Assembly: GCA_964462785.1 (NCBI GenBank)
Contig: CAYWZA010000001.1
Location: forward strand, 1,144 to 65,143
Reading direction: 5' to 3'
Length of the DNA: 64,000 nucleotides
DNA from: an uncultured Candidatus Saccharibacteria bacterium
Lineage (GTDB): Bacteria; Patescibacteriota; Minisyncoccia; Phycocordibacterales; UBA2100
Made by a program: the position numbers and the translations under genes. Shown piece by piece: positions 40,571 through 44,511 of the stretch; within the stretch, counting starts at the first letter, position 1, and every line of letters starts with the position of its first letter. The notes under the pieces were generated by a model that was not told the DNA's origin, searched no databases, and saw only the letters and a list, made by a program, of their open reading frames with translations.

Positions 40571-40591
40571 TATCAAGGTTTAACCTTGATA
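40571..40591. repeat. 21-bp inverted repeat TATCAAGGTT-T-AACCTTGATA, copy 1
   Basis: 10-bp perfect arms around one central nucleotide. It lies 2 nt downstream of the helicase stop and ~40 nt upstream of the next gene's start on the minus strand. An identical copy is at 44491..44511. Confidence 0.8.
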
Positions 40592-40592
40592 C

Positions 40593-42272
40593 TTAGAGAA
40601 GAATGCGGACGAGCTTAAGCTCATCGAAGGAGTAGACGCCTTTGAGTGCTTGGTGGACGGGGGTGAGACGCTCGGTACCGTGCTCTTTGAAAGCGGCGGC
40701 GATTTTCGGGAGGGCGTCGCGGAGTTTGGGGGAAATCATCCGCTCGATATCGCGCTTCGAAAGCGCCTCGCGCATGAAAAGATTCTGTAGGTGGTCGATG
40801 ATAGTCCCCTCTTTGAGATTGCGCTCTTTCGCGATGTCTTTGATGCTCTTGCTCTGCTTCGCGAGCGCGAGCGTCACCTCCTGCGTATCACCTTTCTTTG
40901 CTCGCACCTGTTTCTTCTTCGGCGCAACACCACCCGCAGTCGAGCCGCCGCACGCCTTGAGAAAGAGCTCGGAAATTTCCCGGTGTTCCCTATCCTCCAT
41001 CACGGCAAATCGCGCGCGGGCATCTGCCGAGCGCTGTTTGAATTGCCGCTCTTCGCGCGCGACTTCGGGATGCACTTGGAGCGCACGCTCATTAAAGCCG
41101 ATCAGGTGCAAGCCATCGAGCGAGCGCACGCGTGAAAGCGCCACGTATCCCTGCCCGTATTCAAATGCGCCCGTAAGATCGACGACCGCCTCATCAAGCG
41201 TCATGCCTTGCGATTTGTGCACCGTGATCGCCCACGCAAGCTTGAGCGGCAACTGCGAAATACGCGCGATGATGCGCCCGCTCTCGCCCATGATCCACTC
41301 CACGGGCGCGACTTCAATATCGCGCCCCGCGGTCGTGCGCACTGTCGGCGCGCCATCGCTCGCAAATGAAATCACCTCGCCCGTCGTGCCGTTTACATAC
41401 TGCCCCGCAGGATCGTTTTTGGTGAACATCACGCGCGCACCTTTTTTGAGCGTGAGCTTTTCAGGAGAGAGGCAGCCGCGCTTGAGCGATGCAATAGAAC
41501 CATCCGGTCCGCGCTCGGTCATTTCATAGGTGTATGCCTTGCCCGTGAGCTGCTCCAGACGTTTTTCATTGATCCTATCAACATCCCTGTTGTGCGAAAA
41601 AAGGCGCGGTGCATCTTGTGGAGCCTTATCCTCTCCCACCGCGCGTTTCGCAAGCGCATGCTTCGCTTGCTCAAGCTCAGTTCCTTTACGAATCGCTTTG
41701 AGTATGCCGGTAAACGCGGCGTCTTCTTGCCGATGTTGCTCGTGCAGATAGCACACGAGCGGATTGAGCTCACCCCACGCACGCGAGCGAAATGCAAACG
41801 GCGCACCCTCCTCTTCCTCATTAAAACTGCGCTTCACGACCGGCGGCAACTGGAAAAAATCTCCAACGACAATAACCTGCATCCCGCCAAAGGGCACCTG
41901 TCGCTCGCGTACCGCGCGCAGCACCTGATCAAGCATTTCCAAGATGGAGGCGGAGAGCATGGAGACTTCATCAATAATGAGCACGTCTGCACCCTTCGCG
42001 CGCCGTGCTGCAGATTTGTTTTCCACAATCTCCGCGAGATCGTAATCAGAAAGATATTCGCGCACGCCGATGCCGCTCCATGAATGAATCGTCATCCCGC
42101 CGATATGCGTCGCGGCGATGCCTGTCGATGCGGTGATCGCGGGCTCGATGCCGTGATCGCGCAGCCAGCTCACATACGCGTTTATCGTATGCGTCTTGCC
42201 GCTTCCCGGCTCGCCGGTGAGAAAGACATTTGCACCTGTCTTCAGGATTTTCAGTGCCTCCTCTTGCATCAT
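40593..42272 (-). CDS. Pif1/RecD-family 5'-3' DNA helicase with C-terminal HTH domain
   Basis: VFLTGEPGSGKTH (Walker A), LIIDEVSML (Walker B), VGDFFQLPPV (Pif1 signature), and a C-terminal ~90-aa helix-turn-helix tail. Confidence 0.85.
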   Translation of the reverse strand: MMQEEALKILKTGANVFLTGEPGSGKTHTINAYVSWLRDHGIEPAITASTGIAATHIGGMTIHSWSGIGVREYLSDYDLAEIVENKSAARRAKGADVLIIDEVSMLSASILEMLDQVLRAVRERQVPFGGMQVIVVGDFFQLPPVVKRSFNEEEEGAPFAFRSRAWGELNPLVCYLHEQHRQEDAAFTGILKAIRKGTELEQAKHALAKRAVGEDKAPQDAPRLFSHNRDVDRINEKRLEQLTGKAYTYEMTERGPDGSIASLKRGCLSPEKLTLKKGARVMFTKNDPAGQYVNGTTGEVISFASDGAPTVRTTAGRDIEVAPVEWIMGESGRIIARISQLPLKLAWAITVHKSQGMTLDEAVVDLTGAFEYGQGYVALSRVRSLDGLHLIGFNERALQVHPEVAREERQFKQRSADARARFAVMEDREHREISELFLKACGGSTAGGVAPKKKQVRAKKGDTQEVTLALAKQSKSIKDIAKERNLKEGTIIDHLQNLFMREALSKRDIERMISPKLRDALPKIAAAFKEHGTERLTPVHQALKGVYSFDELKLVRILL

Positions 42273-43156
42273 AGTTTTTTCTTGCGGGATTTCTTTATTT
42301 TCTTTTCTCCGTACACGCCTGTAAGCAAATCGATATCTTTCCCCGTGCTCATAAGGAGCTCAATATTTTTCTCCTCGAGTGCTTTCATGAGCGTAAGCCA
42401 CCCCTTATCCGGATTTTTTGTCTTTTTGTATTCGCCTCGAATGGCTGCAAAATCTTTGATGAAGCAGTGCCCGCCCGCGCCGCGCCCCACCTTTGCCCCC
42501 GGATGTCTGCTTGCGTCTGCCACTTTGAGATGCGACATGCCGATACGCGGATCGGAGCCGAGCCCATCCCGCACGTCGTCCCATTTCACCCCATATGATT
42601 GTGCGATGTCGTGAAAAAGATTTGCGAAAATAACTTTAGTGAAGAGGAAGCAATTTGCTGCATATTTAATGAGCTCTGATTCGCGCGAGGATGTGATGAG
42701 TGAGAATGGCGCTTTCGGCAATACGCTCACCACTTTCTCCGCCGCAGCGCGGTGCGCTTTGCTCTCCTTGGGAATTCCGATGATATTGCGTGTCGGGTGT
42801 GCGGCGTCATACGCAGCAGTCGATTCGACGAGAAACTCCGGCGAGTGCAGTATTATTTTTTTCGGAAATGCTTTCTGCATCTTCTCGGTAAAGCCGGGCG
42901 GCGTCGTGCATTTAATAACGGCGGTGCGCCCATTACCCACGAGCGCGATCACGTTTTTAAGCGCCATGCCATCAAAGCCTTTCGGTGTCGTCGGTGCAGG
43001 CACGGCAATGAGGACGATATCGCATTCCGAAATTCTTTCTTTATTTTTTACAAACGGCTCGCTGCGCGTATAGCGCACGACCTCAAATCCTCTGTTTTCA
43101 AAATCATCCGCGTAGCTCTTGCCGATAAAGCCCTGCCCGATAAAGCCGATCTTCAT
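42269..43156 (-). CDS. UDP-glucose/GDP-mannose dehydrogenase family protein, second short form lacking the C-terminal domain
   Basis: MKIGFIGQGFIGKS NAD-binding motif and the catalytic-Cys motif GAGGHCFIKD; ends ~50 aa later (295 aa). Same truncated architecture as 7592..8383. Confidence 0.6.
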   Translation of the reverse strand: MKIGFIGQGFIGKSYADDFENRGFEVVRYTRSEPFVKNKERISECDIVLIAVPAPTTPKGFDGMALKNVIALVGNGRTAVIKCTTPPGFTEKMQKAFPKKIILHSPEFLVESTAAYDAAHPTRNIIGIPKESKAHRAAAEKVVSVLPKAPFSLITSSRESELIKYAANCFLFTKVIFANLFHDIAQSYGVKWDDVRDGLGSDPRIGMSHLKVADASRHPGAKVGRGAGGHCFIKDFAAIRGEYKKTKNPDKGWLTLMKALEEKNIELLMSTGKDIDLLTGVYGEKKIKKSRKKKL

Positions 43157-43213
43157 TCAGAAAATGTACCATGCAGAAAGCTCTTGAAACTATGTGTATA
43201 CCGTTGCGTTGAA

Positions 43214-43241
43214 AGACCCGACGGATAAATCCGTCGGGTCT
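43214..43241. terminator. Putative bidirectional intrinsic terminator hairpin
   Basis: AGACCCGACGGA-TAAA-TCCGTCGGGTCT (12-bp GC-rich stem, 4-nt loop) in the 100-nt spacer between two minus-strand genes, followed by TGTGTCTCTCTC on the plus strand; U-tracts are weak. Confidence 0.4.
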
Positions 43242-43258
43242 TGTGTCTCTCTCGAGCA

Positions 43259-43456: not shown

Positions 43457-43472
43457 CTTGTGTCTCCCACAT

Positions 43473-43487
43473 TGTTGCTAACAGCAA
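43473..43487. promoter_or_regulatory. 15-bp perfect palindrome GTTGCTAACAGCAAC upstream of the RHH-like ORF (possible operator)
   Basis: Perfect dyad, 17 nt upstream of the small ORF start at 43456 and downstream of the GT4 stop at 43511. Confidence 0.3.
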
Positions 43488-43510
43488 CCTACGCGTTTGA
43501 TTCAATATCG

Positions 43511-44479
43511 TCAAACTGTCGTTGCGGAAATATCGGCACAATACTTCTCGACATATTCTTCAAAGGAATGATATGGGCTGCTCATGAGCGCCGCCTGTCG
43601 CGGACCCGATTCGATCCAGCGCACGACAGTCTGCGCAAAATCTTTTTCAGAAGAGACGATCGCCCCCGCTTCGCGTGCAATACCGACGTCTGTCGCAATC
43701 ACCGGTATGCCCGCAGAGAGCGCTTCCACGATCACCATCCCATAGCCTTCATAGAGTGAGGGAACGAGCAGCGCATCGGCGCTCGCATAATGCGGCAGTG
43801 GATCGCCCGCGCCAGCAAATACCACATAGCGATCAAGTCTAAGTGTACGTACAAGCTCTTTGAGGCTTTTCTCCTCACGTCCCGAGCCGACGATCGTGAG
43901 CCCCGCATCGTGCCCCGCTTCGCGGGCGCGCAAAAGCGCGGTAATTGCCAAGCGGATATTTTTCTCTCGCTCCAGGCGCGAGACAACAAGCAATGCGATT
44001 TTAAATTGCGGGTGCTTCACCCGCGCGATACCCTCGTAGCGCGCAGCATCGACAAAAATGGGCAGCACCGTGATAGGCGCTGGTGGCTTAATTTTTTGCT
44101 CAATAGATTCTTTCACCCCTTCGGATACAACGCGGATCCTCTCTGCACGGCGCAGCACAAACGGCGCAATTATCCTGCGCACACGATTGAGCATATGCCC
44201 ACGCACAAATCCTTTCGGGAAAAAATCGGTGTGCACTTGGATGTGCAGTTGCGTGCGGAATACGCGCGAGCAGAGCCATGCGAGCAGACCTGTTTCAAAC
44301 GGATCCTGTGCGGAGATGACATTCGCGTGCCGTGCGCGCAGAATGCCGAGCAGTCCCCGCCCGCGCACGAGAATAATATCGTAAGCATCAAAGTGCTTCG
44401 CATACGCCTGCTGGCGCTCATACGCCGGCGTGCCGGCAATGAGAGTGTTTTTGTCAGTTGAAAAAATGGTGACTTTCAT
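43511..44479 (-). CDS. GT4 glycosyltransferase
   Basis: C-terminal SLYEGYGMVIVEALSAGIPVIATDVG (classical GT4 E-X7-E block). The ORF begins with GTG at 44581; I prefer MKVTIF at 44479, which leaves the inverted repeat intergenic. Confidence 0.8.
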   Translation of the reverse strand: MKVTIFSTDKNTLIAGTPAYERQQAYAKHFDAYDIILVRGRGLLGILRARHANVISAQDPFETGLLAWLCSRVFRTQLHIQVHTDFFPKGFVRGHMLNRVRRIIAPFVLRRAERIRVVSEGVKESIEQKIKPPAPITVLPIFVDAARYEGIARVKHPQFKIALLVVSRLEREKNIRLAITALLRAREAGHDAGLTIVGSGREEKSLKELVRTLRLDRYVVFAGAGDPLPHYASADALLVPSLYEGYGMVIVEALSAGIPVIATDVGIAREAGAIVSSEKDFAQTVVRWIESGPRQAALMSSPYHSFEEYVEKYCADISATTV

Positions 44480-44490
44480 ATCTGAAAGAA

Positions 44491-44511
44491 TATCAAGGTT
44501 AAACCTTGATA
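44491..44511. repeat. 21-bp inverted repeat TATCAAGGTT-T-AACCTTGATA, copy 2
   Basis: Identical to the copy at 40571..40591. It sits at the 3' end of the upstream minus-strand GT4 gene and 12 nt before the MKVTIF start of the next GT4. Confidence 0.8.

Follow-up and report, generated by a model that had tools for sequence, protein, structure and literature searches.

Why should one 21-nt palindrome occupy two separate gene junctions of a small bacterial genome, each time at a stop codon? The question is raised by contig CAYWZA010000001.1 (assembly GCA_964462785.1) of an uncultured Candidatus Saccharibacteria bacterium, of which we analysed a stretch of 64,000 nucleotides (positions 1,144 to 65,143 of the forward strand; hereafter the window, from whose first letter positions are counted). 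The palindrome, TATCAAGGTT-N-AACCTTGATA, lies at 40571-40591 (copy 1) and at 44491-44511 (copy 2). In both places it sits between tandem minus-strand genes, an arrangement which the initial annotation of this DNA had proposed and which the gene calls bear out. We consider it very likely that the two 21-mers are hairpin repeats of the repetitive extragenic palindrome (REP) type, members of a family tied, as selfish or domesticated elements, to a transposase resembling the REP-associated tyrosine transposases (RAYTs; Y1/HUH class) in Patescibacteria. A REP-like element was one of two options that the initial annotation had offered, the other being a dyad operator, and it is the option that our data favour: a dispersed extragenic repeat with compensated stems flanks RAYT-like Y1 transposase genes.

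Both window copies are perfect odd palindromes. They had been described as identical, and the 21 bp are indeed present at both sites, but the centre base differs when one strand is read throughout: the plus strand has T at 40581 in copy 1 and A at 44501 in copy 2, so that each copy is the exact reverse complement of the other. The 21-mer can also be written as the single string TATCAAGGTTNAACCTTGATA. In the 64-kb window there is no further copy, exact or degenerate with up to 3 mismatches, and neither the 10-nt half-site nor the 13-nt apex recurs in the rest of it. The confinement of the half-site AACCTTGATA to the two palindromes led us to reject a DNA-uptake sequence as an explanation. A full-text literature search for words of the sequence returned primers and unrelated matches only, and an Rfam search (E<=10) over 38-47 kb gave two chance-level matches, neither of them at the palindromes.

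Outside the window the element is a dispersed repeat. An exact search for its 19-nt core, ATCAAGGTTNAACCTTGAT, in one genome per GTDB species returned at least 118 stretches of DNA, against about 9 expected by chance from arithmetic on the size of the database. With taxon labels taken as deposited, at least 95 of the listed stretches are labelled Patescibacteria, Paceibacterota or Saccharibacteria, all of them labels of the candidate phyla radiation (CPR). The labels include Paceibacterota, Taylor-, Yanofsky-, Nomura-, Adler-, Kaiser-, Vogel-, Jorgensen-, Campbell-, Zambryski-, Yonath- and Moranbacteria, and many core-bearing metagenome-assembled genomes (MAGs) among the matches listed are labelled Saccharibacteria. 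Other phyla account for 15 listed stretches, where the core lies mostly inside open reading frames (ORFs), consistent with chance, and 8 stretches are unlabelled. At two sites, L073 322-340 (Acinetobacter) and L097 2871-2889 (a gammaproteobacterial MAG), the core stands at a gene end within identical flanks (…ctgtcggaggtggag/ctttttt…); here the match seems fortuitous and the hairpin seems to be an unrelated, conserved terminator. A search of 2.9 million viral contigs gave a single core match, from which we conclude that phages do not carry the element. The copies in a genome appear to number in the tens rather than the hundreds, given 2 in the 64-kb window and at least 10 exact cores in a single Taylorbacteria MAG.

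These data bear on the simplest rival, a coincidence or the remnant of a local duplication, which would accord with two copies only in the window and with the lack of half-sites elsewhere in it. We give it practically no weight. The 21-mer found 0 matches in 100 dinucleotide-preserving shuffles with 3 mismatches allowed, in keeping with the earlier view that its recurrence is unlikely by chance, and the core returns in the CPR-labelled stretches just described. A longer duplicated segment had also been considered at the outset; the flanks of copies 1 and 2 share no similarity, which excludes segmental duplication.

The counts of pairing and position that follow rest on the 124 core sites contained in the listed stretches, with crude ORF calls. 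The hairpin apex AAGGTT-N-AACCTT is conserved and the lower stem co-varies. The first pair outside the 19-mer is Watson-Crick at 97 of the 124 sites (T-A at 65, C-G at 24) against 57 expected, and pairing stays enriched for about 5 positions further out, where the sequence is variable. Beyond the palindrome, a Y…R preference at ±10 and A/T-rich pairing are the only features of the flanks. Degenerate copies from the same loci, which form a sample independent of the search pattern, include the compensated stems AGCAAGG…CCTTGCT (L118, L005), AACGAGG…CCTCGTT (L017), ACCGAGG…CCTCGGT (L093) and ATTGAGG…CCTCAAT (L105), and locus L105 alone holds several different stems.

Position is equally regular. 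About 70% of the listed sites are intergenic by the crude ORF call, an ORF of at least 70 aa ends between -19 and +40 nt from the core at 58 of the 124, and at 19 a stop codon lies inside the element itself, either as the central TAA/TNA or as the TGA of CCTTGAT. Where a site separates tandem genes, typically 0-13 nt lie between it and the upstream stop, against 20-600 nt to the next start. Sites also follow tRNA genes: one stands behind a cluster of four tRNA genes in L061, another separates tRNA-Thr from tRNA-Asp in L001. The initial annotation had suggested a genome-wide search for the motif and its positional pattern; across Patescibacteria the motif proves to be a dispersed repeat anchored at stop codons. 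Chromosome sites of the parS, matS or NBS type were set aside on account of this intergenic and stop-codon anchoring and of the co-varying stems. A promoter, with TTGATA as a -35 box, was likewise rejected: a few downstream -10-like boxes were seen by eye, but none at the window copies, where the scan lists nothing either.

The same observations weigh on the idea of a dyad operator, according to which the palindrome would bind a homodimeric transcription factor, for instance a GntR-like protein recognising GT-N3-AC. Its symmetry is perfect to the centre, the self-complementary 'loop' TTNAA included, a gene start follows each of the window copies, and the odd-length symmetry around a GGT-TNA-ACC core presumably resembles sites of the GntR/FadR type. 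We nevertheless hold an operator to be very improbable. In tandem pairs the sites keep their 0-13 nt from the upstream stop, with anything from 20 to 600 nt left before the next start; they occur after tRNA genes, no regulator gene is consistently adjacent, and the different compensated stems within one locus would not be explained by a single dimeric protein.

A more serious competitor is a host-evolved hairpin at gene ends, serving as an unconventional terminator, mRNA 3' stabiliser or processing site, with the proximity of a transposase being secondary. The anchoring at stop codons and after tRNA genes would suit it, as would the stable fold. A stable hairpin had been predicted from the arms, and on the transcribed strand we obtain a 9-bp stem with a 3-nt loop in both copies, with 51-nt contexts of -14.9 kcal/mol (z -3.1) for copy 1 and -12.1 kcal/mol (z -3.5) for copy 2; pairing of copy 2 reaches 44486-44516 (31 nt, 15-nt arms, 93%). 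It had further been stated that no U-tract follows. That is correct for copy 1, and copy 2 is followed on the transcribed strand by UUCUUUC, a weak U-rich tail; some other sites have A-tract/T-tract flanks like those of bidirectional terminators. Over the class, however, at least 5 T within the 8 nt downstream on the coding strand occur at 14 of the 58 gene-end sites, against 8-11 on three control sides, so that these sites have no directional U-tract as a class. The elements mark gene ends and are not canonical terminators as a class, as had been proposed for the two copies, neither of which is listed in a terminator scan of the window.

What the window's ordinary terminator-like hairpins look like is different: they are GC-rich, with folding energies of -22 to -24 kcal/mol. 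Two such intergenic, perfect inverted repeats with A/T-tract flanks stand at 43213-43242 (14-nt arms, -23.9 kcal/mol) and 45624-45653 (13-nt arms, -22.3 kcal/mol) and probably act as ordinary intrinsic terminators in both directions. A gene-end hairpin of host origin would in addition leave unexplained the exact sequence across lineages, the bracketing of Y1 genes and the co-variation of hairpin type with transposase, both described below, and as the primary explanation we find it improbable. A gene-end role is nonetheless compatible with a REP-type repeat as a secondary effect.

What sets the repeat apart is its association with a transposase. Clusters of copies at L105 enclose an ORF of 230 aa whose match to Pfam Y1_Tnp exceeds the gathering score (36 bits, cut-off 23). 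Such clusters (L105, L070, L118) had at one point suggested attC sites and gene cassettes, an idea dropped since the intervening ORF is the Y1 transposase. By tblastn, homologues occur in 8 of the 118 listed loci, each beside or between palindrome copies, with bracketing in L028, L004, L030, L105, L118, L070 and L034; about 1 co-occurrence would be expected by chance if each genome of about 1 Mb held one gene and loci were 8 kb, an estimate to be set against the 8 seen. The CPR proteins, of about 225 aa with a C-terminal helical extension, have invariant HUH (N-H-x-H) and Y-x-H-x-N-P motifs, in agreement with the RAYT signature of a HUH motif plus a catalytic Tyr in Y-x-x-x-N-P, and their best and sole NCBIfam match is REP_Tyr_transpos (NF047646). 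A single-sequence phmmer search of the PDB gave no match; a profile of eight proteins had the E. coli TnpA-REP structure 4ER8 as its sole significant PDB match. An AlphaFold (AF2) model of a homologue (pLDDT 92.8) also led Foldseek to 4ER8_A as the best match and the only one at E<=0.001 (2.9e-5, target TM 0.67), followed by the IS608, ISDra2 and IS200 transposases; for 2A6M, 2VJV and 2XM3 the Foldseek probability is 1.00. The family comprises 6,388 protein clusters at E<=1e-5, annotated at source as 'hypothetical', as 'transposase' or, in a few JGI records, as 'REP element-mobilizing transposase RayT'.

The association also appears when the loci are chosen by the protein. Of 80 metagenome loci fetched via the transposase, independently of the motif, 74 had usable flanks, and 38 of these carry the same hairpin on both sides of the gene (22 inverted, 16 direct) under a strict criterion of identical 6-bp stem and loop. 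The upstream hairpin ends a median of 17 nt before the RAYT start codon and the downstream one begins a median of 2.5 nt before the end of its stop codon. An AGGT(T/C)N(A/G)ACCT apex stands beside the gene in about 13 of the 80 loci, and in nearly all others the two positions flanking the gene are taken by a perfect palindrome of another sequence, mostly built as stem-AGG-N5-CCT-stem. In L129 it is the window's own 21-mer with centre C, TATCAAGGTTCAACCTTGATA, that lies 33 nt upstream of the RAYT gene. The type of REP tracks the relatedness of the RAYTs: for the window-type apex, 14 of 20 nearest neighbours share the type, where 4.3 would be expected. This bracketed architecture is the defining feature of RAYTs according to Nunvar 2010 (PMC2817692).

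Doublets of inverted copies adjoin CPR RAYT genes in L142, L168, L136, L150 and L070, and the hairpin loops of related RAYT loci are truly asymmetric (GAG/CTC, CTT/AAG) and stand in inverted orientation, a pattern that follows the logic of hairpins rather than that of half-sites and counts once more against an operator. An asymmetric sub-family of the window-type element, AGCGAGGTTNAACCTTGAT, with one G·A mismatch and one G·T pair, occurs in several genomes. Its sites are L070 5269, 6580, 6605, 7328 and 7352, L012 3073 and L048 6926, and its doublets, 25 nt apart, adjoin the L070 RAYT gene.

A separate observation concerns the RAYT genes themselves: in 12 of 41 CPR genes the core of the gene's flanking REP recurs exactly and in frame within the coding sequence, at a conserved position about codon 55-65 (L105 2890-2908, L118 at about 701, L070 at about 7121, and L137, L176, L178, L197, L174, L171, L181, L168 and L188; offsets of +157 to +196 nt from the RAYT start). 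The in-gene core co-varies with the flanking variant, GAGGTTGAACCTC, for example, being read as 'EVEPQ' and AAGGTTCAACCTT as 'QGSTL'. It could be a device of autoregulation or an insertion tolerated in a variable loop.

At the second junction of the window, relatives offer an empty site. The window's glycosyltransferase (GT) protein is on record with 100% identity (P0001; NCBI contig, Logan SRR12113430), and its nearest relatives are 58% and 51% identical. In L200, L201 and L202 the two GT genes overlap and no palindrome separates them; the overlapping junction reads ATGCGCGTTGTAG in L200 (in context …ATATGCGCGTTGTAG…) and ATGCGCGTAG in L201 (in context …GTATGCGCGTAG…). Compared with these relatives the window junction has about 32 extra nt, the element included. 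The GT homologues end in …LLKEICAL*, …ILKTL* or …LLKKVCA*, without IKV, and the window's upstream GT ends in NIKV, which is encoded by the element.

Here the initial annotation had suspected that the element sits exactly on a stop codon, and this is so: the centre of copy 2, 44499-44501, is TAA on the minus strand and is the stop codon of the upstream GT gene. It had also argued that this ORF should end in KVKP*, which is wrong. The minus strand reads AAA AAT ATC AAG GTT TAA, that is KNIKV* (C-terminus AKLLKNIKV*), as in the ORF track; KVKP* is encoded when the centre of the element is A on the coding strand, as in L004. A start within a few nucleotides of the upstream stop was claimed for each copy and holds for copy 1, which begins 1 nt past the helicase stop codon (TAA, 40593-40595), copy 2 containing the stop itself. 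Of the 12-40 nt claimed up to the next gene, copy 1 conforms with 38 nt to the ATG at 40532, but copy 2 lies 10 nt from the next start, the ATG at 44480, which an independent gene call in L199 (322 aa) confirms.

L200, the closest relative locus, also bears on copy 1. Its Y1_Tnp gene is flanked by the second GT gene on one side and by the orthologue of the window's 181-aa gene on the other, and the REP there is of another type, ACGGTTAGTC-N-GACTAACCGT, in three copies. As an observation beside this, the RAYT gene (7265-7951, minus strand, within 7188-7990) occupies the syntenic slot of window copy 1 (40533-40600), and the downstream gene can be aligned between the window and L200 over its 5' region.

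From these comparisons a mechanism can be proposed. A RAYT encoded elsewhere in the genome would bind the hairpin in stretches of single-stranded DNA such as those at replication forks, and might then cut and rejoin DNA and in this way spread or maintain copies, as is suggested by E. coli TnpA-REP, which cleaves and rejoins REP DNA in vitro (Messing 2012, PMC3479197, PDB 4ER8). Copy 2 may have been inserted at the junction of formerly overlapping GT genes, where it would have replaced the last few codons, given its central TAA as stop and set the genes 19 nt apart. Within the polycistronic mRNA, a hairpin of about -11 kcal/mol would probably act as a 3' stabiliser or weak pause, and would probably uncouple translation of the two GT genes. 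A role in mRNA processing or stability seems plausible by analogy with the REPs of E. coli. Liang, Rudd and Deutscher reportedly found in 2015 that E. coli REPs depress translation of the upstream gene if no more than about 15 nt separates them from a stop codon, and both window copies fall inside that range.

The closest known system is that of the REPs and their mosaic arrangements (REP/BIME) with RAYTs (TnpA-REP, YafM) in E. coli, Pseudomonas and Stenotrophomonas (PMC2817692, PMC3479197). Shared with it are the short extragenic palindromes (about 20-40 nt in REPs), often directly after stops, the complementary stem mutations, the co-variation of repeat type with transposase, the cognate copies bracketing the transposase gene with the downstream one at or on its stop, and the HUH and Tyr Y1 fold, the CPR protein being closest to 4ER8. 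The hosts differ, being Patescibacteria here, and so does the distribution, since one exact 19-mer is common to many deeply divergent lineages in CPR whereas classical REPs are species-specific. REPINs (Bertels & Rainey 2011, PMC3116915; Bertels 2017, PMC5581495) are likewise non-autonomous and RAYT-associated, and the inverted doublets beside some CPR RAYTs resemble them; the window copies and most dispersed sites, however, are singlets rather than units of two REPs, and the populations appear to be far under the hundreds known for Group 2/3 RAYTs. RAYTs are described as occurring once per genome and as being vertically inherited (Bertels 2017, PMC5581495). Elements of the IS200/IS605 group and their PATE-type derivatives (TnpA of IS608, ISDra2) share the Y1 HUH fold and the recognition of end hairpins, but their left and right hairpins differ and travel with the gene, whereas here the hairpin is dispersed without it (none in 64 kb), and the CPR protein is closer to TnpA-REP than to IS608 TnpA. 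Intrinsic terminators, finally, also place a hairpin directly after a gene, in some cases with A/T-tract flanks, but the stem described here is AT-rich, its sequence is conserved and no directional enrichment of U-tracts accompanies it.

Several observations weigh against a REP-type repeat with a RAYT-like transposase, and they are taken together here. Copy density is low compared with classical REPs, which number more than 100 per genome. Classical REPs have a conserved 5' GT(A/G)G or CGTC head at the foot of the hairpin (Nunvar 2010; Di Nocera 2013, PMC3733652), which the CPR elements lack, no GTAG or CGTC head being present in the flanks of the listed sites. E. coli TnpA-REP depends on a 5' GTAG head as well as on a mismatched bulge (PMC3479197); unlike that bulged stem, the window copies are perfect palindromes, and only the sub-family AGCGAGGTTNAACCTTGAT is asymmetric. 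With neither head nor bulge, recognition must differ from that of E. coli TnpA-REP, and the AGG-N5-CCT apex is the obvious candidate for the recognition feature. The CPR proteins score below the NCBIfam cut-off for RAYTs (36-49 bits against 80), which makes them distant relatives of RAYTs, and the particular apex of the window is found in only about 20 of 89 RAYT loci. In the 64-kb window itself tblastn found no RAYT gene, the cognate transposase being assumed to lie elsewhere in the genome. Lastly, the relatives with the empty site are distant (51-58% protein identity), so that the boundaries of the insertion are approximate.

A bolder form of the same reading can be considered, although we think it rather unlikely to hold in full. 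It would make the system an ancient, phylum-wide REP-RAYT type defined by perfect odd palindromes, an AGG-N5-CCT apex and the lack of a GTAG guide, in which the exact 19-mer was kept while the transposases diverged to about 40% identity. The hairpins would have been co-opted as gene-end punctuation that donates stops, splits overlapping genes and sits in-frame inside the RAYT gene. If so, the repeats would have been kept for a host function and would reveal a new mode of hairpin reading, among the smallest bacterial genomes.

REP-RAYT systems are known mainly from Proteobacteria. Among the papers searched, none links REPs or RAYTs to Patescibacteria, and the surveys consulted do not mention CPR; as a kind of system the REP-RAYT pair is well known, and its CPR version appears to be undescribed. 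Should a REP-type family be confirmed, hundreds of gene-end palindromes in CPR MAGs would be explained, C-terminal tails such as …IKV* and …KVKP* would be repeat-encoded and not native, and extremely streamlined genomes would be seen to tolerate or use a pair of repeat and transposase. A family of RAYTs acting on a substrate with neither GTAG head nor bulge would moreover offer a natural experiment on the reading of hairpins by Y1 enzymes. For the window alone the consequence would be modest, namely two junctions in a cell-envelope glycosylation cluster remodelled by a repeat.

Table 1. Palindrome copies and adjoining genes, with positions in the 64,000-nt window.
Feature	Position	Strand	Remarks
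REP-like palindrome copy 1	40571..40591		+ strand TATCAAGGTT-T-AACCTTGATA
REP-like palindrome copy 2	44491..44511		+ strand centre A; reverse complement of copy 1
PIF1-type helicase gene	40593..42272	-	559 aa, C-terminal HTH_40, ends VRILL*; stop 1 nt from copy 1
Predicted membrane protein gene, 181 aa	39987..40532	-	Downstream of copy 1
GT4-family glycosyltransferase gene, 362 aa	44499..45587	-	Last four codons (NIKV) and TAA stop inside copy 2
Second GT4 glycosyltransferase gene, 322 aa, MKVTIFSTD…	43511..44480	-	Start 10 nt past copy 2

The genes that adjoin the two copies are given in Table 1. Homologues of the PIF1-family helicase in L018, L079 and L114 have a palindrome copy within 0.1-2 kb, which in L018 lies 88 nt past the helicase stop. 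Further along the window, a gene for a VirD4/TraG-type coupling protein (T4SS-DNA_transf, TrwB_AAD_bind; 667 aa) at about 51671-53674 on the minus strand is followed by a gene for an LTD/PKD-domain protein (about 50242-51687, minus strand), both mapped from L199 195-3627. They stand just upstream of the glycosylation cluster, and the pair of coupling protein and LTD/PKD protein is also present in the relative L201.

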